A DNA stretch of 64,000 nucleotides, taken from positions 1 to 64,000 of the forward strand of contig JAVJQW010000042.1 in NCBI GenBank assembly GCA_040218735.1, given 5' to 3'. The translations under genes were made by a program, and so were the position numbers. The DNA comes from Deltaproteobacteria bacterium (GTDB taxonomy: Bacteria > Myxococcota > Kuafuiibacteriia > Kuafuiibacteriales > Kuafuiibacteriaceae). The notes beneath the pieces were generated by a model. That model saw only the letters and a program-made list of their open reading frames with translations. It had not been told where the DNA came from and made no database searches. Positions 2,059 to 29,760 of the stretch are shown here, in pieces (within the stretch, counting starts at the first letter, position 1; every line of letters starts with the position of its first letter).

Positions 2059-3387
2059 TCAGTCTTCGTCCGGCTCGCGCGCGAGGATGCGGTGCACCAT
2101 GTTCCGGTGCAGGCCGGCCTTCTGGGCCGCCTTGGTGACGTTGCCGCCTGCTTCCTCGACGGCGTGCTGAACGTACGCCCGCTCGAACGCCGCCTGCGCG
2201 GCTTTGCGGGCTTCGCGGAAGGGCATGTCGAAGAAGGCGTCGAAGCTGTTGGCCGCGGGGATCGGCTCGCCTTCGGGGTGGAGCGCCTGCGCGAGGGAGA
2301 GCTGCTTCGGGGAGAGCGCGCTCGCCTGTTGGATCGTGTTGCGGAGCTCGCGGACGTTGCCCGGCCAGTCGTGTGCCATCAGCGCGGCGACGGCGGTGGG
2401 CGACAGCGCGATGCGTTCGGCGTCGCCCGCCGCCTCCTGCGCGAAGTGGCGCGCGAGGAACGGGATGTCCTCGGGGCGTTGGCGGAGCGGCGGGAGGTGG
2501 ACGCGGATCACCGCGAGGCGGAAGAAGAGGTCGCTGCGGAAGCGGCGTTGCCGGACCTCCTCTTCGAGGTCGCGGTTGGTCGCGGCGACGACGCGGACGT
2601 CGACCTTCTCGTACGTGTTGCTGCCGACCGGCTTCACGGTTTGTGTCTCGAGGACGCGGAGCAAGCGAGATTGCAGGTCGGGCGGGAGCTCACCGATCTC
2701 GTCGAGGAAGATCGTGCCGCCGTTCGCGGAGCGGAACGCGCCGGCGCGGTCGCTGCTCGCGTGCGTGAACGCGCCCTTCACGTGGCCGAACAGCTCCGAC
2801 TCGACGAGGTTCGCCGGGATCGACGCGCAGTCGATGACGATGAACGGGCCGTCGCCGCGTCGGGATTCGCGGTGGATGGCGTCGGCGGTGACCTCTTTTC
2901 CGGTGCCCGTCTCGCCGGTGATCAGGACGGTGGTGTCGGTGCGGGCAGCGCGTTCGAGGACGGCGAAGGCCATCCGCATCGCGTGGCTCTTGCCGCGGAG
3001 GCCGCCGAACGCGGTGGCGTTCGAAGGGGGCAGCGGCTCTTGCGCGCCTTCCGTGAGGAGCTGCAGGTGTGTCTCGCCGACGCGGATCACCGCGCCGGGG
3101 CTCAGCTCGGCGGCTTCGAATCGGTGTCCGCCGAGGTAGGAGCCGTTGGTGCTCTTCAGGTCGATGGCGCGGACGCGTGGGCCGTCGACGCGCAGCTCCA
3201 GGTGCAGGCGGGAGACGGAGCTGTCGTCGAGCGCGACGGTCGCTTCGTCGGACTGTCCGACGATCAAAGGGCGGTTCGCGGAGAGGGCGACGCGGGTGCC
3301 GGCTTGGCTGCCGTCGAGGACGAGGAGCTCGAGGCCGACGTCCGCCCCGGCGAGGAGGTCCGTGAGCTGCCGAGTCTCGTCCGACAC
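2059..3387 (-). CDS. FHA-domain sigma54-dependent transcriptional activator (FHA-AAA+-HTH)
   Basis: FHA motifs (VSRLH, DLKSTNGS), Walker A GETGTGKE, ESELFGHVKGAFTHA, FLDEIGE, WPGNVREL, C-terminal Fis HTH; GTG start at 3387 preferred. Confidence 0.92.
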   Translation of the reverse strand: MSDETRQLTDLLAGADVGLELLVLDGSQAGTRVALSANRPLIVGQSDEATVALDDSSVSRLHLELRVDGPRVRAIDLKSTNGSYLGGHRFEAAELSPGAVIRVGETHLQLLTEGAQEPLPPSNATAFGGLRGKSHAMRMAFAVLERAARTDTTVLITGETGTGKEVTADAIHRESRRGDGPFIVIDCASIPANLVESELFGHVKGAFTHASSDRAGAFRSANGGTIFLDEIGELPPDLQSRLLRVLETQTVKPVGSNTYEKVDVRVVAATNRDLEEEVRQRRFRSDLFFRLAVIRVHLPPLRQRPEDIPFLARHFAQEAAGDAERIALSPTAVAALMAHDWPGNVRELRNTIQQASALSPKQLSLAQALHPEGEPIPAANSFDAFFDMPFREARKAAQAAFERAYVQHAVEEAGGNVTKAAQKAGLHRNMVHRILAREPDED

Positions 3388-12908: not shown

Positions 12909-14975
12909 TCACCGCTCGAAACGCAGCGTCGACTCGCCGGGCCAAGTCCCCGGTCCGCAGGTCGGGGAGCACCCGAGGGCGTCCGCGCCGCGCGTCCCGT
13001 CGAACGACTCCCACCCGATCGCCGCCGAGGACCCGGCGATCTCCGCGGAGGGCCCGTAGGTGATCTCGACCGCGAGGTCCGCCTCGTACAGCCGCACCTC
13101 GGCGTCCACGCGTTGCCCGTCCTGCGCGTACCGGTGGAACCGGAGGATCGCGATCCGCTCGGGCGCGTCGCCTTCGACGTCGATGTACGTCGCGCTGTCG
13201 GCGGCGCGCGCGAGGCCCGCGTCCCACCACCACGCGAGCAACCCGTTCGGCGCGGACTGCGCCACGAGCTCCGGGGCCGCCGACGGATCCGCGCGGCCGA
13301 ACACGAGGACACCCGGCACCCGGAGGTCCACGCGATCCACGCGGCGGCCGAGGAAGTTGAAGATGAACGGCAGCGCGACCGACGACGTCTCGGCCACGAT
13401 GACTCCGGTCGGCGGCGACAGCTCGGTCGAGTTGCCGGACGTGGTCTCGAACGACGCCCACGTGCATGCGTTCGAGCAGCTGTCGAAGTCGTCGGTGTTT
13501 GCGTCGTCGCACTCTTCGACGCCGCTCCACACGTAGCCGTCGCCGCACGTCGCTTCGACGCACAGACCCACGCAGCCGTCGTCGTTGTCGCTGTTCCCGT
13601 CGTCGCAGATCTCGCCGTCGTCGACCGTCCCGTCGTGGCAGTGCGCGAACTGGCAGTCGGTCCGGCACGCGTCGCGTTGGGTGTCGCTGTTGGCGACGCC
13701 GTGGTCGCACTCCTCGGGGGCTTCGAGGTACCCGTTGCCGCAGACCTCGACCTCACAGCGATCGTTGCATCCGTCGCCGATCGTGAGGTTGCCGTCGTCG
13801 CAGGTCTCGCGCCCGCTCAGCACGAAGCCGTCGCCGCAGAACGCGCCCACGCAGTTCGAGGTGCAGAAGTCGTTGTCGTTGGTGTTGCCGTCGTCGCACG
13901 CCTCGCCGGGGTTCAACATGCCGTCGCCGCACTGCTCGCCGACACACAGGTGCGCGTAGCGAACGACGACCTCGGAGGTCTCGAGCGGGATGAAGCGTTG
14001 TTCGAACTCGACGGTGCGCGCGGCGTAGTCGAGCGACCAGATGAGTGTGTTGCCGTAGCGCGGCGGGATCGAGACGCCGTCCTCCAGGACGACGAGGGAT
14101 CCGTTCGTCGGCGTCGCGTCAAGGTGGAGCCGCTGCACGCCGCCGGGGAAGCGCTCGTCCATCGCGTTGCCTTCCATCCCCTCGCCGCTCAGCCAGACGT
14201 AGTGCAGATCGGTGCCCGCCTGGAGCGCGAGCTGAGCCGCGTGATGGCCGAGGCGCTGCGGCGCGAACCCGACGCGAATCGTCTTCACCGCTCCGGACGC
14301 CACGAGGCCCGGCGGATCGGACTCCAGCGTGAACGCGCTGGCGTCGTCGCCGATGAGCTGCACGTCCACGAACACCGGTGTCGCCGCGCGGTTCGCGAGG
14401 GTGAGCGCCTCGATCTCCGCGTTGCGGCACGCCGCCCCGCGTCGGCCGAAGTCGAGCTGCGCCGGTGACAGGACGACCTCGGTGTTCGTGCCGTGTCCGA
14501 AGACCCGCACGGTGTGCGAGGCACGGTCGGCCGCGAACGTGATCCGCGCTTCGTACGGGCGGGCCTGGTCCGGCACGAATCTAATCGGCACGAACGTGGT
14601 GCTGTTCGGCGCGATCGTCAGCGGCGGCGCCACGCCTGCGATGAATCCGGGCGCCGTGGAGATCGACTGGATGACACACGCCGTATCGGACGCGTTCTCG
14701 AGCGCGACGCGCGCCGCACCCGACAGACCGACCGCGACTGCGCCGACGTCGACCTCCAACGGACCGCGCAGTATGCAGCGCGCGGGCGGGGCACGGTCGA
14801 TTTGTATGGGGGTGTTCGCGAGGAGCACGTCGCGGACGGGGGCGGTGTTCGGCGCGGTGATGCAGCGACCACCGACGAGGGTCTGTCCCGACGGGCACGC
14901 CCCGTCGTCGACGCGCCCTTCCACGGTGCATCCGAACGTCGCGAGCGCGACACAGGTGACAACCCGGGCTCCCAT
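12909..14975 (-). CDS. Cys-rich repeat (DUF4215-type) lipoprotein with ASH/Ig-like domains
   Basis: Lipobox TFGC, two ASH-like domains (LSPAQLDFG), six CGDG..GE.CDDGN-type repeats. Confidence 0.85.
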   Translation of the reverse strand: MGARVVTCVALATFGCTVEGRVDDGACPSGQTLVGGRCITAPNTAPVRDVLLANTPIQIDRAPPARCILRGPLEVDVGAVAVGLSGAARVALENASDTACVIQSISTAPGFIAGVAPPLTIAPNSTTFVPIRFVPDQARPYEARITFAADRASHTVRVFGHGTNTEVVLSPAQLDFGRRGAACRNAEIEALTLANRAATPVFVDVQLIGDDASAFTLESDPPGLVASGAVKTIRVGFAPQRLGHHAAQLALQAGTDLHYVWLSGEGMEGNAMDERFPGGVQRLHLDATPTNGSLVVLEDGVSIPPRYGNTLIWSLDYAARTVEFEQRFIPLETSEVVVRYAHLCVGEQCGDGMLNPGEACDDGNTNDNDFCTSNCVGAFCGDGFVLSGRETCDDGNLTIGDGCNDRCEVEVCGNGYLEAPEECDHGVANSDTQRDACRTDCQFAHCHDGTVDDGEICDDGNSDNDDGCVGLCVEATCGDGYVWSGVEECDDANTDDFDSCSNACTWASFETTSGNSTELSPPTGVIVAETSSVALPFIFNFLGRRVDRVDLRVPGVLVFGRADPSAAPELVAQSAPNGLLAWWWDAGLARAADSATYIDVEGDAPERIAILRFHRYAQDGQRVDAEVRLYEADLAVEITYGPSAEIAGSSAAIGWESFDGTRGADALGCSPTCGPGTWPGESTLRFER

Positions 14976-15025
14976 CGAGCGGACAGAGTATGGCGTCGCG
15001 GCGCAGCGTCGCCAAGCGTCGTGGC

Positions 15026-16483
15026 TCACTCCTTCGACGCGCCCCGGCAACGTGCGATGATTCGTGCACGCTCCTCACCTGACGTACCGGCGCGCTTCAA
15101 GGCGGCGTCGGCCGCGTCGCATGCGCCGAGCATCGCCCGCGACTCGCCGAGGACACGCTCCACGTCGCGCCGACGGTGCGCCGCGAGTGCGCCGCCCCGC
15201 AGGCTCTCGGCGGCGGCCGCCGCCTGCGCGAACCGCTCCGCGGCGAAGAGCGCGTGCAGCTGCCCGAGGCGCGCCTCGGTGCGGAGCCGCCCGTCCGGGT
15301 ACGCGGCGAGGTACGCCGCGAACGCATGGATCGCGGCGGCCGCGTCCCCGTCGCCGAGCAGGCGCTGGGCGCGCTCGTAGGCGTCGAGCTGAGCGGCGAG
15401 ATCCGAAGCGGGCGCCGCGCCGGGGCCGCTCGAGCTGGCCGCGCCGTCGCCCTGCGCCGTGGTCCCGGCGCCGCCCTGGGCGGTGGCTCCGTTGGCGTCC
15501 TTCGCGGAGGCCCCGTTGGCGCCGCCCTTGGCGGAGGCTCCGTTGGCGTCCTTCGCTGTGGCTCCGTTGGCGTCCTTGGCGGTGGCTCCGTTGGCGTCCC
15601 TGGCGGCGGCTCCGTTGGCGTCCTTCGCGGTGGCTCCGCTGGCGTCCTTGGCGGTGGCTCCGTTGGCGTCTTTCGCGGCGGCTCCGTTAGCGTCCTTCGC
15701 GGCGGCTCCGTTGGTGTCCTTGGCGGCGGCTCCGTTGGCGTCCTTCGCGGCGGCTCCGTGGACGCCGTCCTTGGCGGACGCTCCGTGGGCGCCAGCCGCG
15801 GCGCCCGCGTTGGCGCCGCCCTGGGTCGGCGCGCCGTCGACGTCGGTCTTGGTCGCGTGGCCAGCGCGCGCTTCGGTGACCCCGTAGGCGTCGCTCTTGG
15901 CGATGCCTCCGCGGGCACCGCCCTCCGCGGCAGCGTGGGCGCCGCTGCGGGCCATGGCTGCGCCCGCGCCGGACTGGTCGGCGGTCGCGTTGGCGCCGCG
16001 CCCGGCGGCTCCGTTGGCGCCGCGCTCCTCGGCCGCGTGGGCGCCGCGCTCATCCGTGACGCCGTCGGCAACGCCCCTCGCGTTCGCGCCGCCGGAGGCG
16101 CGCTCATCCGTGACGCCGTCGGCGCGGTCCTCGTCGATGTCGCCTTCGGATCCAACAGCGGTCCGCGAGTCGGCGTCGCCGCGCACGGCGCTCGCGCTCC
16201 GGTCCACCGACGCGACCTGCACGGGCTCGGGCCCACCCGTCGCGGCCCACCACGTCGCGGCGCCGCCGAGCACCAGCGCGCCGATCAAGTACGGGACGAC
16301 GCTCGCCGCGCCCACGCCGGCGCTCGCGCCGGCGGCGATCTTCGCCTGCAGCGCCTGCTGCATCGCGCCGAGGTCGTGTGATGCGAGCGACTCGGCCTCC
16401 GCGGACAGATCTCGGCGCAGCGCCTCGGGCACCTCGGGATCGTCGCGCCAGCGCTTGGGTCCGTCCTTCACTTCGCGTCCCAC
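15026..16483 (-). CDS. Putative anti-sigma factor (TM + repeat linker + C-terminal TPR)
   Basis: Overlaps the ECF stop; PKRWRD start, TM helix, TPR end YLAAYPDGRLRTEA. Confidence 0.75.
   Translation of the reverse strand: MGREVKDGPKRWRDDPEVPEALRRDLSAEAESLASHDLGAMQQALQAKIAAGASAGVGAASVVPYLIGALVLGGAATWWAATGGPEPVQVASVDRSASAVRGDADSRTAVGSEGDIDEDRADGVTDERASGGANARGVADGVTDERGAHAAEERGANGAAGRGANATADQSGAGAAMARSGAHAAAEGGARGGIAKSDAYGVTEARAGHATKTDVDGAPTQGGANAGAAAGAHGASAKDGVHGAAAKDANGAAAKDTNGAAAKDANGAAAKDANGATAKDASGATAKDANGAAARDANGATAKDANGATAKDANGASAKGGANGASAKDANGATAQGGAGTTAQGDGAASSSGPGAAPASDLAAQLDAYERAQRLLGDGDAAAAIHAFAAYLAAYPDGRLRTEARLGQLHALFAAERFAQAAAAAESLRGGALAAHRRRDVERVLGESRAMLGACDAADAALKRAGTSGEERARIIARCRGASKE
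15478..15790. repeat. In-frame 24-bp tandem repeat (AKDANGA[TA] octapeptide, about 11-12 copies)
   Basis: Recurrent ggctccgttggcgtcctt(c/g)gcgg units. Confidence 0.9.
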
Positions 16484-22267: not shown

Positions 22268-22924
22268 ATGAAGAAGTGGCTGGGGTTGGCGCTGGGGATC
22301 GCGGGGGTGTGTGGGCTCCTGCTGGTCATGCAGGACGCGGACGGAACGGACGCGGTACCGGCCGCCGAGGCGCCGGCCGAGGTGGCGCCGAACGAAGCCG
22401 CGCCCGAAGCGGCGCCCGCGGCGGCGGAGGTGGCCGAGGCGACGGCGGCGAAGGCGGGCCCCGCGGAGGCGGCCGAGGCCACGTCGGACGCCTCGGCGCC
22501 GCCGACCCAGGCGCGGACGAGCCTCGTCGAGAAGGCGTGGGCGGAGCGCGCCTCGCAGAAGGCGTTTCAGGGCGAGGACTACGAGAAGAACATCAAGTAC
22601 CCGCTTACGAAGGATGGCATCCAGTCCGCGGTCCGGGCGAGGAAGGACGAGCTGAAGGCCTGCTACGAGGATTGGCAGAAGATGCAGCCGGAGCTCGGCG
22701 GGCGGTTGGTGACGCGGTTCGAGATCACCCGGGACGAGGAGAACGCGGACGTCGCGCGCATACGTGAGGTCTCGCTGCCCGAGTCCGAGCTGGACAACGT
22801 GTTCATGGAGGGGTGCGTGCGCCAGGTGATGGAGACGCTGAAGTTCGACCCGCCGAGCAGCGGGAAGCTGATCGTGAACTACCCCCTGTCGTTCTCGAGC
22901 GCGGAGGAGAAAGCGGAAGATTGA
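22268..22924 (+). CDS. AgmX/PglI C-terminal (TonB-C-like) domain membrane protein
   Basis: N-terminal TM, Ala-rich linker, ACYE...PELGGRLVTRFEI...GCV...LKF..P...VNYP. Confidence 0.8.
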   Translation: MKKWLGLALGIAGVCGLLLVMQDADGTDAVPAAEAPAEVAPNEAAPEAAPAAAEVAEATAAKAGPAEAAEATSDASAPPTQARTSLVEKAWAERASQKAFQGEDYEKNIKYPLTKDGIQSAVRARKDELKACYEDWQKMQPELGGRLVTRFEITRDEENADVARIREVSLPESELDNVFMEGCVRQVMETLKFDPPSSGKLIVNYPLSFSSAEEKAED

Positions 22925-22956
22925 AACGGCGGGCGTGCCGGGTGAAACTGCGCGGT

Positions 22957-24132
22957 ATGACCCGGCTCGCTCACGGCGCTCTCTTCGCCTCTGCCTTTCT
23001 CGTCGTCGCTTGCTCCGGGGGAGACGACGGCGACGACGACGGTCCCGTCCTCCCCCGCGACGGCGGGATGGTCGCGCGCGACGGCGGCGAGAACACCGGG
23101 ATCCGTGACGCGGGCCCCCCGCGCGACGGGGGACCGCGCGACTGCACTTCGAACCCGAACGGCTGCGCGATGAACGAGCTGGTCGGCGCAAACTGCGAGT
23201 GCCTCGCGCAGTGTGAGATGGGGTTCATGTGGAATCAGGTCGAGCAGCGGTGTGATCCGATGGCGCAGGGCGAGTGCGCGATGGACAGCGACTGCGGCGC
23301 CGAGAACTCGTGCCTCGACCTCGCGATGGGCAACATCGCGCCGTGCACGGGCGCCGCGACGTGTCGGTGCCTCCCGACGTGTGATCCGTGGGTTCGCTTC
23401 CAGCAGTCGGGCTGCCCGACGATGTTCGACTTCGGCCAGGGCGACGTCCCGGTGTGGTGCACGTGGACGCGCGGTTCGCAGACGCTCCCCGAAGCGCTGT
23501 GCCTGCCTTACGACATGAACGACAACGACTACGCGGAGGCTTGCGTGGTCACGACCGACATGATGACGGGCAACCGCACGTCGGACAGCTGTGACTTCAA
23601 CCGCAACCTGACTTGCCTGATCGACGGGCGCGACGGCGACTTCAATCGCGGCGTGTGCAGCCGCTTCTGCGACTCGGCCCAGAGCCCGGACCACTGCGAA
23701 GACCTCGGTCCGCAGCGGTGTGTGCCGTACGGCTTCACGGGGATCGATCCGGCGATCGGCATCTGCCAGAACAGCGCCGTCATGGACCTCGGCACCACGT
23801 GCACGTCGAGTGTTACCTGCGCGGGCGGGATCTGCTCGCCGATCCTCGGCAACGCGTGCACGCAGGGGTGCGGTGGGTTCGAGCAGTGTGCAGCGGGGGA
23901 CACGTGCATCAACTTCGGCAACACGACGCCGCCGGAGCAGGCGCGGATGTGTGTGAAGGGCTGCAGCACGGCCGACACGGCCGGCGATGCGGAGTGCCAG
24001 ATGTTGCACCCGACCAACGTCTGCCGTGACATCTTCGGGACGGGCACCACGCTCTGCATCCCGCCGTGCACGCAGATCGGGTGCATCGCGGCGGGCACGA
24101 CCTGCGACGTCGCGTCGGGTCGCTGCATGTGA
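22957..24132 (+). CDS. Cys-rich hypothetical lipoprotein
   Basis: Lipobox VVAC, RDGG/RDAG linker, dozens of Cys in small disulfide modules. Confidence 0.75.
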   Translation: MTRLAHGALFASAFLVVACSGGDDGDDDGPVLPRDGGMVARDGGENTGIRDAGPPRDGGPRDCTSNPNGCAMNELVGANCECLAQCEMGFMWNQVEQRCDPMAQGECAMDSDCGAENSCLDLAMGNIAPCTGAATCRCLPTCDPWVRFQQSGCPTMFDFGQGDVPVWCTWTRGSQTLPEALCLPYDMNDNDYAEACVVTTDMMTGNRTSDSCDFNRNLTCLIDGRDGDFNRGVCSRFCDSAQSPDHCEDLGPQRCVPYGFTGIDPAIGICQNSAVMDLGTTCTSSVTCAGGICSPILGNACTQGCGGFEQCAAGDTCINFGNTTPPEQARMCVKGCSTADTAGDAECQMLHPTNVCRDIFGTGTTLCIPPCTQIGCIAAGTTCDVASGRCM

Positions 24133-25904
24133 GCACCCCCTCAACGCTGGTCGAGGCCTTCTTCGCGCGCACCACCGCCGACGCGGATCGCGTCGCGCTG
24201 CGCCGCAAGCACCTCGGCCTCTGGGAAGAGCTGACCTTCGCCGAATACGCCGAGCGCGTGGAGGCGGTGTCGCGCGCGCTGGTGGAGCTCGGCGTGGCGC
24301 CGGGGACGCCGGTGGGGTTGATCGCCGAGAACCGCCCGGAGTGGTTGTTCACGGATCTGGGGATCATCGCGGCGGGGGCGGTGACGTGTGCGATCTACAC
24401 GACGAGCTCTCCGGAGCAGATCGGCTACATCCTGTCGCACTGCGGGGCGAAGGTCGTCGTCGTCGAAAACGAGGAGCAGCTCGACAAGCTCCTCGTCGTG
24501 CGGGAGTCGCACCCGATCGATCACATCGTGGTGATGGACGAGAAGGGCCTCGCGACGTTCTCCGACCCGGGCGTCCGTTCGTTCGACGCGGTGTTGGAGC
24601 TCGGGCGCAACAGCGACGTGGACCTCGCCGAACGACGCGCGGCGATCCGCGGCGACGACCTGGCGATCCTCGTCTACACGTCCGGCACCACCGGTCCGCC
24701 CAAGGGCGTGATGCTCTCGCACACGAACATCATCTGGGCGTGCCACGCGCTGAAGACCGCGGCGGGGGCGTTCGCCGACGACGAGTTCCTCTCGTTCCTC
24801 CCGCTCTGTCACATCGCGGAGCGCATCGTGACGGTGTTCCACCAGATCGTGAACGGGTCGGTGGTGAGCTTCGCGGAGGCGCTCGACACCGTCGCGGACA
24901 ACCTCGCGGAGGTCCGGCCGAGCTTCCTGTTCGCGGTGCCCCGCATCTGGGAAAAGATGATGAACGGCGTCGAGCTGCGGATGCGCGAGGCGACGTGGTT
25001 CAAGCAGCGCATGTACGCGTGGGCGCTCGAGGTCGGGCGCGAGGCGAACGTGTGCCGGCGCGAGGGGCGCGCGCCGCCGTCCGCGTACGCCGCGGCGGAC
25101 CGGCTGGTGCTGCTGCCGCTGCGCGACAAACTCGGGCTGGATCGCGTGCGCATGGCCGCGACGGGTGCGGCGCCGATCTCCCCGGAGGTCGTTGATTATT
25201 TTCAAGCGATCGGGGTGCCGTTGGTCGAGGTGTACGGTCAGACCGAGAGCTCTGCGGTGATCACGCTGAACTCGCCGGGGTTCCGTGCGCCGGGGAAGGT
25301 CGGCGAGCCGGCGGAGGGGCTCGAGCTGAGGCTGGCCGAGGACGGGGAGATCCTCGCGAAGGGCCCCGGCGTGATGCTTGGTTACTTCGACGAAGCCGAA
25401 GCCACGGCGCGCACGGTGCAGGACGGGTGGCTGCACACGGGGGACGTGGGCGAGCTCGACGACGAGGGCCAGCTCCACATCACCGACCGCAAGAAGGACC
25501 TCATCATCACGGCGGGCGGGAAGAACGTCGCGCCGCAGTACATCGAGAGCAAGCTCCGCACGAGCGCGTACGTGCACGACGCGATCGTGATCGGCGACGG
25601 CCGAAAGTTCCTGACGGCGCTGATCGTGCTCGACGAGGACAACCTCATCGCGTGGGCGCAGCGCGAGCGTGTGCAGTTCGGTGCCTACGCGGAGCTGGCG
25701 AAGAGCCCCGACGTGCTCCGGCTGATCGACGAGGAGGTGAGCGCCGTGAACAAGACGCTCACGCACGTGGAGGCGCTCAAGCGGTTCACGATCCTCGAGC
25801 GCCGGCTCGACACCGACGAAGGGGAGCTCACGCCGACGCTCAAGGTTCGGCGGAAGGTCATCGCGGAGAAGTACGCCGACGCGATCGAGGCGATGTATCG
25901 GTAA
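24129..25904 (+). CDS. AMP-dependent long-chain acyl-CoA ligase (FadD15-like)
   Basis: YTSGTTGPPKG, FLPLCHIAER, VPRIWEK, YGQTE, WLHTGDVG, DRKKDLIITAGGKNVAP, TPTLKVRR. Confidence 0.92.
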   Translation: MSTPSTLVEAFFARTTADADRVALRRKHLGLWEELTFAEYAERVEAVSRALVELGVAPGTPVGLIAENRPEWLFTDLGIIAAGAVTCAIYTTSSPEQIGYILSHCGAKVVVVENEEQLDKLLVVRESHPIDHIVVMDEKGLATFSDPGVRSFDAVLELGRNSDVDLAERRAAIRGDDLAILVYTSGTTGPPKGVMLSHTNIIWACHALKTAAGAFADDEFLSFLPLCHIAERIVTVFHQIVNGSVVSFAEALDTVADNLAEVRPSFLFAVPRIWEKMMNGVELRMREATWFKQRMYAWALEVGREANVCRREGRAPPSAYAAADRLVLLPLRDKLGLDRVRMAATGAAPISPEVVDYFQAIGVPLVEVYGQTESSAVITLNSPGFRAPGKVGEPAEGLELRLAEDGEILAKGPGVMLGYFDEAEATARTVQDGWLHTGDVGELDDEGQLHITDRKKDLIITAGGKNVAPQYIESKLRTSAYVHDAIVIGDGRKFLTALIVLDEDNLIAWAQRERVQFGAYAELAKSPDVLRLIDEEVSAVNKTLTHVEALKRFTILERRLDTDEGELTPTLKVRRKVIAEKYADAIEAMYR

Positions 25905-25986
25905 CGGTCGCCTCGGGAATCTGAGATCACCCCTCGCGAAGACATACTGTTCGGTTTGGCCTAGGATGTGCTCTAGCGGTGGGGCG

Positions 25987-26649
25987 ATGAAGCACGAGAT
26001 CCGCGTCTCCCGACACGGCTTCACCGAGTGCCCTTCGTGCCTCGCCCATATTCGTCTCGACGAAGAGTGGGCGCGGACGACGTGCCCCTTCTGCAAGGCG
26101 TCGCTCCTCGGCGCGGTCCGCGAGGGCCCCCGCGACCTGATGACGGTCCTCCGCACCGTGCATCAGCGCACCGGCGGAGCGCTCGCGGCGTCGCTGCTGA
26201 CGTTCGGCCTCGCGACCGCGTGTGAGGAGACGGGGCTCGACCTCGCGTCGCCTCCGCGCGACGGCGGCCCTGCGGTCACCCAGGAGCACGACGCGGGCTT
26301 CGTCGAAGACGGCGGGTTCGTGGTGCCCGATGCCGGTGTGGTCGACGCCGGCGATACGGTGCCCTCCCCCGAGTACGGACTGCCGCCGATGGACGCCGGT
26401 GTCACCGACGCGCAGGTGGTCGACGCCGGTGATACGCCGGTGACTCCGCTGTACGGGAAGGCACCGCCGCTCGACGGTGGTTCGTTCGACGCTTCGACGC
26501 TCGTCGACGCGGGCGACACGCCCGTCACCCCGCACTACGGTCTGCCGCCTTCGCTCGACGGCGGTGTGGTTCGTGTCGACGCCGGTGAGGCCGACGGGAG
26601 CGTGGACGGACCGCACTACGGCTTGCCGCCGATCGACGGGGGCTCGTGA
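25987..26649 (+). CDS. Putative RiPP/protein precursor: zinc ribbon + lipobox + four P-x-Y-G repeats
   Basis: CPSC...CPFC, hydrophobic stretch ending LATAC, acidic DAG/DGG spacers, PEYGLPP, PLYGKAPP, PHYGLPP, PHYGLPP; GTGA overlap with the rSAM gene. Confidence 0.8.
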   Translation: MKHEIRVSRHGFTECPSCLAHIRLDEEWARTTCPFCKASLLGAVREGPRDLMTVLRTVHQRTGGALAASLLTFGLATACEETGLDLASPPRDGGPAVTQEHDAGFVEDGGFVVPDAGVVDAGDTVPSPEYGLPPMDAGVTDAQVVDAGDTPVTPLYGKAPPLDGGSFDASTLVDAGDTPVTPHYGLPPSLDGGVVRVDAGEADGSVDGPHYGLPPIDGGS

Positions 26650-28004
26650 GCGCCCGTCCGCCGAAGCCGACGCCCCCGATCGGCGCGGCGCCCAAGGCGC
26701 ACTACCGTTCGGTGCGGCCGATCGATCACGATCGTCCGCACCCGCTGTACGTCGTCTGGGAGATCACGCTCGCGTGTGACCTCGGCTGTAAACACTGCGG
26801 CTCGCGCGCCGGCCACGCGCGCACGACGGAGCTGACGACGGAGGAGTGCCTCGACGTCGTCCGTCAGCTCGAAGAGATCGGTGTGCGCGAGGTGACGCTC
26901 ATCGGCGGCGAAGCGTACCTGCGCGAGGACTGGGACCGAATCGCCGCGGACATCACGCGGCGCGGGATGGCGTGTGGCATCACGACCGGCGCGCGCAACC
27001 TCACCGACGAACGCGTGCGGCGCGCGGTCGACGCGGGGGTGCAGTCGATCTCGATCTCCATCGACGGTCTCGAGCGCACGCACGACGCGCAGCGCGGCGC
27101 GAAGGGTTCGTGGCGCGCGGCGTTCGACGCCGCCGAGCGCGTGACCGCGACGCCGATGCGGCTCGCGACGAACACGCAGATCAACCGACTGTCGCTCCCG
27201 GAGATCCCGGCGCTCGCGTCGATGCTCGCCGACGTCGGATCGAAGGCCTGGCAGATCCAGCTCACGGTCCCGATGGGGCGCGCGGCGGACCGGCCGCAGA
27301 TGTTGTTGCAGCCCTACGAGCTCACGGTGGTCTACCCGCTCCTCGTCAACGTGAAGCAGCAGCGCCTCGATCCCGGCGGCGTCGCGCTCTACCCCGGCAA
27401 CAACATCGGCTACTTCGGCCCGTACGAAGCGGCGCTCCGCTACGGCGGCGATCGCGGCGCGCACTGGGGCGGCTGCCCCGCGGGGAAGTGGAGCATCGGC
27501 CTGGAGGCGGACGGCAAGATCAAGGCGTGTCCGTCGCTCCCCTCGTCGACGTTCAGCGGCGGCCTCACCACCGAGATGAGCGTCGCGGAGGCCATCGCGA
27601 ACACGCAGGAGCTGACGTACGTGAAAGACCGCGGCCGCCGCGATCTGTGGGGCCACTGCCAGACCTGTTACTACGCCGACGTCTGCAAGGCAGGTTGCAC
27701 GTGGACGTCGCAGGTCTTCATGGGCCGCCCCGGCAACAACCCGTACTGCATCTACCGCGCGATGGAGCTGGAGAAACGCGGCGTCCGCGAACGCTTCGAA
27801 CGCATCTCCGCAGCACCCGGCGTCCCGTTCGATCAGGGCCGTTTCCGCCTGATCGAGGAGCCGCTCGAGGCGGTCGAGTCGATCGCGGGCCACTCCGTCG
27901 AAGCGGTGATGACGTTGGATTGGCGCTCGGGGGGGATTTGGGACCGCGACGCGATGAAGGCGCTCCTCGCCCCGCAATCGGGCCGCCTCCCCGTCCTCGC
28001 GTAG
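26646..28004 (+). CDS. Radical SAM/SPASM peptide maturase, PlpX splicease-like (TIGR03913/TIGR04103-like)
   Basis: VWEITLACDLGCKHCGSRAG (CX3CX2C), LIGGEAYLR, WQIQLTVPMG, LLQPYEL, PGNNIGYFGPYE, GCPAG..GLEADGKIKACPSL, CQTCYYADVCKAGC..NNPYC. Confidence 0.9.
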   Translation: MSARPPKPTPPIGAAPKAHYRSVRPIDHDRPHPLYVVWEITLACDLGCKHCGSRAGHARTTELTTEECLDVVRQLEEIGVREVTLIGGEAYLREDWDRIAADITRRGMACGITTGARNLTDERVRRAVDAGVQSISISIDGLERTHDAQRGAKGSWRAAFDAAERVTATPMRLATNTQINRLSLPEIPALASMLADVGSKAWQIQLTVPMGRAADRPQMLLQPYELTVVYPLLVNVKQQRLDPGGVALYPGNNIGYFGPYEAALRYGGDRGAHWGGCPAGKWSIGLEADGKIKACPSLPSSTFSGGLTTEMSVAEAIANTQELTYVKDRGRRDLWGHCQTCYYADVCKAGCTWTSQVFMGRPGNNPYCIYRAMELEKRGVRERFERISAAPGVPFDQGRFRLIEEPLEAVESIAGHSVEAVMTLDWRSGGIWDRDAMKALLAPQSGRLPVLA

Positions 28005-28008
28005 TGAC

Positions 28009-29760
28009 TCAATGATACTTGAAGCTCGGCTCCGCGTTCGAGATGTCCGAGGGGCTGTCGAACTCCGCGAGGATCTCGCGGGGCATCGGGAACCAGCGCA
28101 GGTGCTGGAAGTCCTCGGTGAGCTCCGGGTCGCGCACGCGGTCGCGCTGGATGCGTTCGCCGGCGGCGGCGAGGATCTTCTTCGCCTCCTCGATGTACGT
28201 CTGTAGGACCCACTCGGGCTCAGACGCGTGGCGTGCGCGGTACTGGAGCTGCCCTTCGGAGTACTTCAGGTCGTGCAGGCGCATCTTCGCTTCCGGGCGG
28301 CCGTCGCGGTGGCGCCACTCGCCGCTCGCCGGATCGAAGTCGTAGTAAGGCAGCAGCTTCCAGCCTTCGTTCGCGACGAGGTCGACGGCGTCGATGATGA
28401 ACTCGAAGACCGCCTCGCTGATGAAGTAGTTGAAGTTCACCCGCACCCAGCCGGGTTTGATGCCTTCACACCCCTTCACGATCTCGCGTTCGAACTGCGC
28501 CGACGTCGTCAGATCGATCCCGAGCAACCGGTGCCCGTACGGCCCGGCGCACGAACACCCGCCGCGTGACTGGATGCCGAGCAGATCGTTCAGCAGCGCG
28601 ACGACGAAGTTGTGGTGCAGGTAGCGGTCGTTGTGCCGCACGACGAACGACACGATCGACAGACGCCACGCGTTCGGGTTGCCGAGGATTCGGATGTTGT
28701 CGTTCTTCGACCAGCGATCGATCGCGCGCCGGATGAAGCTCTTCTCGCGCTCCCGGATCGTCTCGACGCCGACCGCATCTTTCAGCTGGAACACCAACCC
28801 CGCGCGGATCGACTCGATGATCGCCGGCGTGCCGCCCTCTTCGCGGTGGACGATGTCGTCGAGGTAGCGGTGGTGCTCCGGGTTCACGTAGGCGACGGTG
28901 CCGCCGCCGGGCGTCGTCGGAACGCGGTTCTTGAACAGCGTGCGCTTGGCGATGAGGATGCCCGGCGTCCCGGGGCCGCCGATGCACTTGTGCGGGGAGA
29001 TGAAGACCGCGTCCTTGTAGATGAGGTCGCCGTCGGGGCGCTCGTCGCGCATGTTCATCTCGATGCGCACGTAGGGCCCGGCCGCCGCGAAGTCCCAGAA
29101 CGACAGCGCGCCGTGGGCGTGGAGCATCGCGGCGACGGCGCGGGTGTCGCTGCCGATGCCGGTGACGTTCGACGCCGCGGAGAAGCTGCCGATCCGCAGC
29201 GGGCGGTTCTTGAACTCGATGAGCTGCTGCTCGAGGACGCCGAGGTCGATTCGGCCGTCTGCGTCCTCGGGGATCGTGACGACCTCGCAGATCGACTCGC
29301 GCCACGGCAGCTCGTTCGAGTGGTGCTCGTACGGACCGATGAACACGACGGGGCGCTCGTTCGCCGGGATGTGGTCGGAGAGGTTGTAGCGTTCGTCGAG
29401 GTCCGCGGGGATGCGGAGCTGCAGGACCTCGATGAGTTTGTTGATCGCGCCCGTCGCGCCCGAGCCGCAGAAGATGACGACGTCACGTTCGTCGCCGCCG
29501 ACCGCCTTCAGGATGATGTCGCGCGCGTCTTCGCGGAACCGCGTCGTCTGCAGGCCGGTGCCGGACGTCTCCGTGTGGGTGTTCGCGTACAGCGGCATCA
29601 CCTCGTTGCGGATGAAGTCCTCGATGAAGGACAGGGACCGGCCGGATGCCGTGTAGTCCGCGTAGGTCACGCGGCGCGGGCCGAACGGGCCGTCGAGGAC
29701 CTCGCCGTTGCCGATGATCGAGGCGCGGATCGTGTCGATGAGCTGGGAGCCTTCCGCCAC
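28009..29760 (-). CDS. Aminotransferase class V-fold PLP enzyme (cysteine desulfurase-like)
   Basis: YADYTASG, EHHSNELPW, AASNVTG, SPHK, EEGGTP, RGGCSCAGPY. Confidence 0.9.
   Translation of the reverse strand: MAEGSQLIDTIRASIIGNGEVLDGPFGPRRVTYADYTASGRSLSFIEDFIRNEVMPLYANTHTETSGTGLQTTRFREDARDIILKAVGGDERDVVIFCGSGATGAINKLIEVLQLRIPADLDERYNLSDHIPANERPVVFIGPYEHHSNELPWRESICEVVTIPEDADGRIDLGVLEQQLIEFKNRPLRIGSFSAASNVTGIGSDTRAVAAMLHAHGALSFWDFAAAGPYVRIEMNMRDERPDGDLIYKDAVFISPHKCIGGPGTPGILIAKRTLFKNRVPTTPGGGTVAYVNPEHHRYLDDIVHREEGGTPAIIESIRAGLVFQLKDAVGVETIREREKSFIRRAIDRWSKNDNIRILGNPNAWRLSIVSFVVRHNDRYLHHNFVVALLNDLLGIQSRGGCSCAGPYGHRLLGIDLTTSAQFEREIVKGCEGIKPGWVRVNFNYFISEAVFEFIIDAVDLVANEGWKLLPYYDFDPASGEWRHRDGRPEAKMRLHDLKYSEGQLQYRARHASEPEWVLQTYIEEAKKILAAAGERIQRDRVRDPELTEDFQHLRWFPMPREILAEFDSPSDISNAEPSFKYH

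Follow-up and report, generated by a model that had tools for sequence, protein, structure and literature searches.

A probable binary spliceotide-type cassette of Myxococcota pairs a splicease-branch enzyme with a zinc-ribbon precursor predicted to be exported

Introduction

Type I spliceotide systems, PlpX/PlpY/PlpA and PcpXYA of Pleurocapsa, were reportedly described by Morinaka in 2018. With the locus presented here they share a homologous radical SAM (rSAM)/SPASM enzyme and an x-Y-G target (PMC11414181, PMC10533398). In experiments, PlpXY accepts splice tags with R-P-L/G-Y-G-L-P-I (Table 1 of PMC10533398). The type II systems of Rheinheimera, RhaX/RhaA, RcsX/RcsA and RasX/RasA, have two components only, as is the case here (PMC11414181, PMC11626197). 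In these binary systems a leader element of the precursor binds and activates the enzyme, and the products inhibit proteases in vitro (PMC11414181, PMC11626197). With engineered PlpX-PlpY and RhaX-leader fusions, it was shown that the activating element can do its work as part of the enzyme, as part of the substrate or on its own (PMC11414181). A 2022 review notes that neither the native products of spliceotide systems nor the biological roles of these products are known yet.

Here we describe a two-gene locus from a Myxococcota contig (JAVJQW010000042.1, assembly GCA_040218735.1); the window, i.e. the whole stretch analysed, was 64,000 nucleotides long. Compared with the type I Plp and Pcp systems, there was no Y protein or RRE gene among the neighbours by Pfam, and no recurrent third gene in 51 loci. 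The leader was not of the Nif11 or nitrile-hydratase type, and epimerase, PCAT and protease were absent. The substrate protein, 220 aa long, combined four sites with a zinc ribbon and a lipoprotein-type signal. The leader element of the Rheinheimera systems is an alpha-helix, whereas here it was a four-Cys zinc ribbon plus a helix. Also unlike this locus, the Rheinheimera systems yield short peptides that have disulfide bridges and one or two sites and are encoded beside graspetide clusters with exporter-peptidases.

Results

The precursor gene (25987..26649, + strand; 220 aa plus stop), an ORF with a conserved family, was followed by the gene of the rSAM/SPASM enzyme (26646..28004, +; 452 aa). 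The GTG start of the enzyme gene shared 4 nt with the TGA stop of the precursor gene (GTGA, 26646..26649, +), an overlap that suggests translational coupling. An alternative ATG of the precursor was present at 25966, and the family alignment favoured the start at 25987. Third codon positions held five of the six strain differences listed within the precursor gene. A two-gene unit coupled by GTGA, without an adjacent PqqD/RRE gene, peptidase or exporter, was what the preliminary description had claimed; both ORFs and their overlap were found, and Pfam detected none of these three functions in the 16 neighbouring ORFs (11190-40629). The sole transporter parts among these ORFs were an ABC ATPase and a permease of the branched-chain amino-acid type. 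No third gene or flank family recurred in more than 3 of 51 loci, which speaks against a functional link with the FadD-like ligase upstream or with the class-V aminotransferase in convergent orientation. A scan for transcription signals returned 0 promoter-like sites, and 2 terminator-like sites where 0.8 were expected; in DNA so rich in G+C, these numbers are not informative. In one metatranscriptome run, both genes were matched by short contigs with 90-99% likeness, for which library DNA is a possible source and which give no expression level.

Three parts were recognised in the precursor. The N-terminal zinc ribbon (residues 1-45; 25987..26121, +) carried C15, C18, C33 and C36 (CPSC/CPFC) in invariant alignment columns, and R6, S8, R9, H10, H21, P34 and F35 were conserved as well. 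It was followed by a helix (residues 51-79; 26137..26223, +) with a basic n-region and a short uncharged h-region, ending in a lipobox-like L-A-T-A-C with Cys79. The remainder, presumed to be the mature part, was an acidic tail (residues 80-220; 26224..26646, +) of low complexity, rich in G, P and D, with a net charge of -23. In the AF2 model, pLDDT was 86-95 for residues 1-40 and a helix spanned residues 51-77, while the tail had pLDDT values of 50-64 and no secondary structure, as expected from a disordered region.

The only tyrosines of the precursor were residues 130, 156, 184 and 211. All of them lay in the tail within P-x-Y-G-x-(P/A)-P, with x being E, L, H and H. Site 1, P-E-Y130-G-L-P-P (26368..26388, +; Tyr codon at 26374), agreed with the family motif. 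Site 2, P-L-Y156-G-K-A-P (26446..26466, +; Tyr codon at 26452), had Y156 and G157 conserved to at least 90%. Sites 3 and 4 were P-H-Y184-G-L-P-P (26530..26550, +; Tyr codon at 26536) and P-H-Y211-G-L-P-P (26611..26631, +; Tyr codon at 26617). The ribbon cysteines, lipobox, acidic tail and four P-x-YG tyrosines reported earlier could all be located in the 220-aa translation. In 200000 composition-preserving shuffles of the tail, four Tyr-Gly occurred in 132 and four P.YG in 0. The P-x-Y-G-L-P context of the sites is shared by the tags that PlpXY accepts.

Searches with the precursor against Pfam and NCBIfam gave no match at E <= 0.01; for residues 1-80, only weak, generic zinc-ribbon matches appeared at E up to 1. 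A fold search against 48161 PDB chains returned nothing usable (best Z 2.5). The nearest clusters in the ESM Atlas were unnamed Myxococcota proteins, with structural TM scores of at most 0.28. An anti-sigma factor, which could combine a ribbon with a membrane helix, was considered and dropped, because no sigma factor gene was present among the scanned neighbours and the linkage is to the rSAM enzyme.

The pairing was widespread. Of 31 distinct Myxococcota loci, 23 had a frame on the same strand that held 2-6 x-Y-G sites and ended at the rSAM start, and a zinc-ribbon ORF lay beside the enzyme in 62 of 80 related loci from species genomes. Ribbon, hydrophobic stretch and Cys occurred together in 68 of 81 zinc-ribbon ORFs, and 66 of these 68 complete precursors had at least one YG. 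YG-repeat neighbours were thus present beside nearly all homologues, and the preliminary description, which had made their absence a ground for rejection, withstood this comparison. Tail tyrosines were within YG in 178 of 190 cases (68 complete family precursors). At the family YG sites, Pro stood two positions before Tyr in 121, at the third position after it in 143 and at the fourth in 130. His as x was rare (1 of 178 family sites and 0 of 387 among library matches). A search with a precursor profile retrieved 628 cluster representatives at E <= 1e-10. Among the best library matches, 133 of 145 had the same architecture, with 387 of 413 tyrosines within YG. All sister enzyme clades were likewise paired with x-Y-G repeats. 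The cultured Lujinxingia vulgaris TMQ2 carried a cassette with a single site. None of the 20 precursor relatives examined was named as a known family in any source. The two-gene unit is a variant, widespread and as yet without a name, of a known system.

Profile scores place the enzyme in the splicease branch, and not among the heme or cofactor rSAMs. Its radical SAM cluster motif C44-x3-C48-x2-C51 (26775..26798, +) was invariant in 56 sequences. The SPASM region (27474..27749, +) held seven invariant cysteines (277, 295, 338, 341, 347, 351 and 368). All three enzyme signatures quoted in the preliminary description were present, and most of their residues were invariant in the 56 clade members. 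The best models were TIGR04103 (498.5 bits) and TIGR03913 (452.5 bits), followed by TIGR04133, the rSAM_w_lipo model of Bacteroidota, to which the enzyme was only distantly related (155.5 bits; cut-off 425, not reached), and by a heme b synthase model (126.5 bits). The splicease models therefore scored about three times higher than any other, the reverse of the clustering with heme or cofactor enzymes that would have spoken against the proposal. Pfam Radical_SAM matched with 73.7 bits, and the closest PDB sequences were SkfB and PqqE. The earlier identification as a splicease stood as far as these two models were the best by far; it did not reach family membership, since both scores stayed below the curated cut-offs of 725 (TIGR04103) and 591.75 (TIGR03913). 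By its profile scores, the enzyme thus represents a third, unnamed clade, a relative of both families and a member of neither.

The Nif11-class precursor typical of TIGR04103 enzymes (nif11-class peptide radical SAM maturase 3) was replaced by one with a zinc-ribbon leader. TIGR03913 (GDL motif peptide-associated maturase, rad_SAM_trio), whose systems are common in Myxococcota and have precursors with two M-Y-G-V sites, includes the same kind of zinc ribbon. There, the ribbon is found at the C-terminal end of the enzyme model or in a small downstream gene, whereas here it is on the substrate. Of the 477 positions of the TIGR03913 model, the match of our enzyme extended to 415, and the ribbon segment (positions ~421-477) was found neither on the enzyme nor just after it.

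A small ribbon ORF lay just downstream of TIGR03913-like enzymes in eight of ten such loci, and all eight of these ORFs matched the TIGR03913 enzyme model at positions ~420-477. An HMM derived from the precursor ribbon located ribbons upstream of the enzyme in one clade and downstream of it in another. The ribbon therefore occupies three genetic positions: a free small gene, the C-terminal end of the enzyme (in the TIGR03913 model) and the substrate. In the stand-alone ribbon proteins, an amphipathic helix was seen at the place of the precursor helix. The three positions are those taken by the engineered activating elements, which are helical laboratory constructs, whereas the ribbon takes them in natural loci.

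A complex was modelled from the enzyme, residues 1-80 of the precursor, SAM and three 4Fe-4S clusters, together with three controls. Ribbon and helix docked on the enzyme with an ipSAE of 0.72, compared to 0.01 for the best control. Among solved complexes, 116 of 157 scored this high, and among mismatched pairs 2 of 215; these counts apply only roughly to a model made with its own alignments and riding ligands. The runs shared at least 32% of contacts, and partner pLDDT was at least 57. No similar complex was found among solved PDB structures by sequence search. The modelled contacts involved conserved ribbon residues, and in the best run helix residues 51-74 touched the enzyme. On the enzyme side, H273 and Y342 were kept in all three ribbon-linked clades and replaced in the ribbon-less TIGR04103-like clade, a pattern confounded by phylogeny. 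Together, the model and the comparative genomics suggest that the ribbon recruits the splicease as a recognition leader, a role that had been put forward as a possibility and is now backed by the three genetic positions as well as by the docking.

The signal-like stretch of the precursor read ...QRTGG-ALAASLLTFGLATA-C79. Cys79 was at least 90% conserved in family alignments, and 66 of the 68 family members had A, G or S directly before the Cys. In the family, the median length of the uncharged stretch was 15 residues; mean charge was +2.2 in the flank preceding the stretch and -3.4 over the 15 residues that follow the Cys. The genome encoded three Lsp and three Lgt genes. On this evidence the precursor is probably lipid-anchored, and the earlier lipobox reading gained from the family-wide small residue and Cys after a short uncharged stretch. 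Two features deviated: position -3 of the lipobox was Ala instead of Leu, Val or Ile, with Leu at -4, and the Cys, as residue 79, was not at the extreme N-terminus and stood behind a folded 45-residue domain, an arrangement that is atypical for lipoproteins. Export by Tat was dropped, because no twin-arginine motif was seen before the helix in this precursor or in the relatives read. If the lipobox is used, the ribbon is cleaved off and the mature product is not a zinc-ribbon protein. Of the membrane-anchored zinc-ribbon product proposed earlier, the anchor would accordingly be retained and the ribbon lost. A place at the cell surface, as proposed earlier, and one in the periplasm would both fit these data.

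In other splicease precursor types, the YG sites were so placed relative to a membrane anchor that they presumably face the cytoplasm. Export is therefore not a general rule for splicease substrates.

Discussion

In our view, the unit is rather probably a binary cassette of the spliceotide type that acts on an exported protein and not on a small peptide. Docking on the rSAM/SPASM enzyme would take place in the cytoplasm and involve the precursor's N-terminal zinc ribbon, perhaps together with the next helix, as the complex model and the comparative genomics indicate. Homology and motif suggest that the enzyme would handle each P-x-Y-G-x-P-P as known spliceases handle x-Y-G. A tyramine equivalent would be excised at every site, leaving an alpha-keto-beta-amino amide derived from Glu, Leu, His and His. 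The helix would then serve as a lipoprotein signal peptide, as motif conservation implies: Sec would export the tail, Lgt would lipidate Cys79 and signal peptidase II would cut before it. This cut would remove the ribbon leader without a dedicated protease or exporter. The predicted product is a disordered, polyanionic protein that is held in the envelope by its lipid anchor and bears four electrophilic ketoamides. Speculatively, it would most likely act as a tethered inhibitor of serine or cysteine proteases. The mechanism carries a constraint: a cytoplasmic enzyme must complete four sites ahead of export.

Different fates of the helix have to be weighed against lipoprotein sorting. Splicing and ribbon docking would be alike if the helix were an uncleaved signal anchor, and the product would then be a bitopic membrane protein, its ribbon cytoplasmic and its ketoamide tail external. 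Signal anchors are common 50 residues into a protein, where lipoprotein signals are not, and conservation of the LAASLL-type stretch is higher than usual for signal peptides (A67, A68 and L70 invariant in one alignment; A67 and L70 at least 90% conserved in a further one). An anchor, however, has no need for the A/G/S-Cys ending of 66 of the 68 members, nor for an uncharged stretch with a median of only 15 residues, which is short for a stable span; we consider this topology unlikely, though worth keeping in mind. Since residues 51-74 touch the enzyme in the best model run, conservation of the helix could also reflect docking instead of export. It might then be merely an enzyme-activating leader helix as in RhaA, the product being cytoplasmic or freed by unlinked factors. 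A leader helix does fill the activator site on the splicease in known binary systems (PMC11414181), and the amphipathic helix of the stand-alone ribbon proteins lies at the same place. Basic and acidic flanks and a small residue before Cys are signal-peptide features that a docking helix would not require, and docking of hydrophobic helices is a common modelling artefact, which makes this the least probable of the fates considered for the helix.

The chemistry at the Tyr-Gly sites could differ as well, with a crosslink, hydroxylation, epimerisation or similar radical modification in place of tyramine excision. Reaction type shifts between close rSAM/SPASM clades, and our enzyme is in a separate clade below both equivalog cut-offs. 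Against this, the P-x-Y-G-L-P target equals experimentally spliced tags, x-Y-G repeats accompany all sister clades and the splicease models outscore the others threefold; a different reaction is accordingly improbable. That the two genes are neighbours by chance, with the YG pattern a by-product of a low-complexity tail rich in G, P and D, is already contradicted by the shuffles, by the repeated pairing in 62 of 80 loci and by the 4-nt overlap, and its probability is negligible.

In a literature search, to which the classification of splicease types reportedly given by Scott et al. in 2022 (Chem 8:2659) did not belong, no paper pairing a spliceotide with a lipoprotein was found. Queries on splicease with myxobacteria, ketoamide, lipobox or zinc ribbon gave nothing relevant, and the available part of a 2023 review on RiPP leader proteases had 0 occurrences of 'signal peptidase'. 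We tentatively propose, as a possibility that goes beyond the exported-protein reading favoured above, a RiPP-like pathway grafted onto lipoprotein sorting. A portable ribbon would recruit and activate a tyramine splicease on a nascent lipoprotein precursor, and Sec, Lgt and Lsp would act as exporter and leader peptidase. The outcome might be a genetically encoded, envelope-tethered, multi-ketoamide covalent protease trap in hundreds of uncultured Myxococcota lineages.

The family would be a case in which the sequence predicts the fate of the product, namely export and a lipid anchor without dedicated protease or exporter, and multiple warheads are predicted on a protein instead of a peptide. 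As a recognition element for RiPP-type enzymes, the zinc ribbon appears to be of a new kind, compared with the PqqD-like RRE or the leader helix. Its placement in nature, free, on the enzyme or on the substrate, appears to mirror the positions chosen by engineers, and it could yield compact splice-tag tools and a handle for genome mining.

Precursor and its gene

The precursor ORF (25987..26649, + strand) encodes 220 aa and lies on the same strand as the enzyme ORF (26646..28004, + strand, 452 aa), whose GTG start overlaps the precursor TGA stop. A CPSC...CPFC pair spans precursor residues 15–36, the stretch after this zinc ribbon ends in L-A-T-A-C79, and the acidic tail of 141 residues has a net charge of −23. 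Tyrosine occurs only at positions 130, 156, 184 and 211, each time in P-x-Y-G followed by L-P-P or K-A-P. When the tail was shuffled 200,000 times, Gly followed all four Tyr in 132 shuffles and four P.YG sites arose in none. The AlphaFold2 model, computed with 52 relatives as input, had a confident small beta-rich domain (residues 1–40, pLDDT 86–95) and a helix (51–77), and was unstructured beyond residue 80. Because ORFs, motifs, shuffles and model all agree with it, the preliminary description of a ribbon, a LATAC-terminated hydrophobic segment and a tail with four P-x-Y-G tyrosines was accurate.

The locus recurs in several metagenomes, and one 19.7-kb metagenome contig spans the whole stretch with 32 differences. 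Among the differences listed inside the precursor gene, five of six fall on third codon positions (manual count). Several studies contributed metagenome runs (aquaculture, biofloc, sponge) with DNA near-identical to window positions 25900–28010 (50–82% of sampled words). Short contigs of a single biofloc metatranscriptome map to both genes, which is not proof of transcription.

Placement of the enzyme

The CX3CX2C motif and the seven SPASM cysteines of the radical SAM (rSAM) enzyme were invariant among 56 relatives. The two NCBIfam splicease models scored 498.5 bits (TIGR04103, cut-off 725) and 452.5 bits (TIGR03913, cut-off 591.75), followed by TIGR04133 (155.5), TIGR04053 (145.2) and heme b synthase (126.5 bits). 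Because both splicease models are far above the next ones and both are below cut-off, family-model scores place the enzyme in the splicease branch, yet as a member of neither named family. Other Myxococcota clades favour one model, with 610–643 bits for TIGR04103 or 556–570 for TIGR03913 even in partial sequences; enzymes linked to ribbons score about equally with both. A PDB sequence search with the enzyme returned no splicease structure, the best matches being SkfB and PqqE.

YG repeats and gene order at related loci

Enzyme homologues (E ≤1e-60) were found in 95 of 401 sampled Myxococcota genomes. The Myxococcota search and the window's own genome gave 31 distinct loci, after duplicates and two unrelated rSAM loci were left out. 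YG-repeat neighbours, on whose presence beside homologues the preliminary description depended, were found: 23 of the 31 loci have a same-strand frame with 2–6 x-Y-G sites ending at the enzyme start. The repeat type is specific to each enzyme clade, e.g. R-P-M-Y-G-V-F, V-A-R-Y-G-V-I-R, A-M-R-Y-G-L-P and P-M-Y-G-M-P. Tags accepted by PlpXY contain R-P-L/G-Y-G-L-P-I and A-A-G-Y-G-V-V-F, so that, as far as the available part of that paper goes, the local YG contexts are the same as at these loci (PMC10533398, Table 1).

Enzyme phylogeny is tracked by the gene order of the ribbon precursors. In a midpoint-rooted FastTree of 108 enzymes, built after removal of duplicate and partial loci, of fragments below 330 residues and of rows identical to others, the window enzyme belongs to a 60-row clade (support 99), and in 51 of these rows the ribbon precursor lies upstream. 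In another clade, of 13 rows (support 96), the ribbon precursors follow the enzyme in 11 rows, singly or in tandem arrays of up to four. No flanking ORF family recurred in more than 3 of the 51 upstream-type loci, and a Pfam scan of 16 window neighbours found no peptidase, RRE or peptide exporter, which bears out the earlier statement that none is adjacent. What is conserved is therefore the enzyme together with its precursor(s).

Downstream, a class-V aminotransferase/SufS-like gene (28009–29760, − strand, 583 aa; Pfam 124 bits, far under the SufS cut-off) meets the rSAM gene tail to tail, the two stops 4 nt apart. It is also found in a same-genus genome (L018) and is not a recurrent neighbour across the family. 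Upstream lie a 439-aa Cys-rich ORF (22813–24132, + strand) that begins like a lipoprotein (...F-L-V-V-A-C-S-G-G-D-D) and matches neither Pfam nor NCBIfam, and a 713-aa protein (12909–15050, − strand) that combines DUF4215 repeats with Ig-like domains and has no relation to the cassette.

Precursor family

A word-based search retrieved only 20 precursor relatives, all of the same architecture; the sources gave no family name for any of them, and two carried a generic zinc-ribbon label only. From a species-genome collection, 80 loci with 3-kb flanks were taken, and a ribbon HMM built from the first 48 alignment columns of the precursor family matched 81 ORFs in 62 of them. The complete arrangement (C..C-gap-C..C, hydrophobic stretch, Cys) was present in 68 of these ORFs, 66 of which carry one or more YG behind the Cys, and 178 of their 190 tail tyrosines are in YG. 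Pro stands two residues before Tyr at 121 of the 178 sites, and at the third or fourth residue after it at 143 and 130, respectively. L is the commonest residue x (68 sites), ahead of E (25), A (23), V (19), P (16), R (10), M (9), D (7) and H (1).

Searched against 1.84 billion representatives, a 52-member profile matched 3078 proteins at E ≤0.001, a count that may take in ribbon-only or low-complexity matches, 628 at 1e-10 and 61 at 1e-30. Among the newly listed matches examined, 133 of 145 had the full architecture, 130 of these 133 had at least one YG, and 387 of 413 tyrosines were in YG.

Two to five tandem ribbon/lipobox/YG precursor genes stand beside one enzyme at six loci (L051, with five, L083, L112, L116, L118 and L122), which suggests diversifying duplication of substrates. 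The window genome has a second ribbon-type cassette (contig C28, locus L003, ~2685–3107, − strand), where a 140-aa ORF lies upstream of a 50%-identical rSAM gene. Its product combines a CSDC...CPNC ribbon with a hydrophobic stretch that closes with L-M-A-C and runs straight into Y-G-L-P-P, which holds the only YG; the tail is Cys- and Asp-rich.

The ribbon as a probable docking module

In the TIGR03913-like clade, a small ORF directly follows the enzyme stop at 8 of 10 loci. These ORFs encode a ribbon and then an amphipathic helix, without hydrophobic stretch or YG. All eight free ribbons tested matched TIGR03913 model positions ~420–477 (E 4.5e-12 to 4.4e-4), so in the sequences behind this model the ribbon is evidently part of the enzyme polypeptide. 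As the precursor-derived ribbon HMM also finds two of the free ribbons, the same module appears to occur on the enzyme, free, or on the substrate. These natural positions match those tested for the activating Y protein or leader helix, which works free, substrate-fused or fused to the enzyme C-terminus (PMC11414181).

At all eight loci (L002, L021–L024, L027–L029; manual arithmetic), the free ribbon ORF is read in frame +2 relative to the rSAM gene, and the TIGR03913 model includes the ribbon as enzyme C-terminus despite these separate ORFs; fused forms, coupling and frameshifting are candidate explanations. At L022, the ribbon GTG appears to overlap the enzyme TGA. L002, on contig C59, holds a third paralogue of the window genome (TIGR03913-like, 556 bits on partial sequence), with the ribbon-plus-helix ORF directly after the enzyme stop and a 207-aa upstream ORF with no YG at all.

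Putative binding of the ribbon to the enzyme is supported by a model of the enzyme with precursor residues 1–80, SAM and three 4Fe-4S clusters. It scored 0.72 (runs 0.80, 0.70, 0.72), and the best of three controls 0.01. Among solved complexes 116 of 157 attain this mark, and among mismatched pairs 2 of 215 do, a rough guide here given our own alignments and the riding ligands. At least 32% of contacts agreed between runs, and partner pLDDT was at least 57. Ribbon residues 8–12, 18–21 and 34–35 make the contacts of highest confidence, with enzyme 257–263, 271–275 and 342–346. Helix residues 51–74 contact enzyme 227–239 and 409–422, the latter close to the C-terminal end at which a TIGR03913 ribbon would be attached; these hydrophobic-helix contacts need particular caution. 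Enzyme H273 and Y342 are each kept in 49/52, 11/11 and 10/10 members of three ribbon-linked groups, and the positions are mostly F/I and E/D in 25 TIGR04103-like ribbon-less sequences, a pattern confounded by descent.

Predicted export and membrane anchoring

In the 68 complete family members, position −1 to the conserved Cys is mostly occupied by A (39) or G (24), with S in three. The uncharged stretch before the Cys has a median of 15 residues, and mean charge is +2.2 over the eight residues before this stretch and −3.4 over the fifteen after the Cys. This pattern is that of a predicted N-in lipoprotein signal peptide and not that of a transmembrane segment. In the window genome, Lsp and Lgt are each encoded by three genes. 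A folded 45-residue domain in front is unusual for such a signal. Should the signal be functional, ribbon and helix would be lost in a single cut by signal peptidase II, which would explain the absence of a protease or exporter gene beside the cassette. The term 'signal peptidase' is absent from the available text of a 2023 review of RiPP leader removal. In minimal family members the lone YG comes 1–3 residues behind the Cys, which allows the mature lipoprotein to carry its modified residue right at the N-terminus.

In acidobacterial and other variants, the YG repeats precede a membrane helix or lie between a ribbon and membrane helices at the C-terminus. Judged from these layouts, export is not a general rule for splicease substrates; membrane tethering would be common to all, and the membrane side would not. 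Among loci L097, L091, L080 and L015, the Acidobacteriota layout has A-P-V-Y-G-G-P-P repeats before a membrane helix; L080 has, in order, ribbon, YG sites and C-terminal membrane helices; and at L015 a gene downstream of the enzyme encodes a tail-anchored protein with three V-Y-G-L-P-P sites.

Novelty and possible function

The splicing chemistry and the enzyme superfamily are already known. Scott et al. 2022, as given in the available parts of later papers, reported that 27 pairs had been characterised and 939 systems predicted across 189 genera. Our literature search found no mention of a ribbon or lipoprotein precursor type; Scott et al. 2022, outside that search, may list one. New here are the proposed docking role of the ribbon and the predicted recruitment of lipoprotein sorting to remove the leader. 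Serine and cysteine proteases are inhibited by ketoamide spliceotides and not by the unspliced forms (PMC11626197, available part). For this reason, the most economical guess is that the product would be a tethered multi-site protease inhibitor, in a predatory, protease-secreting phylum.
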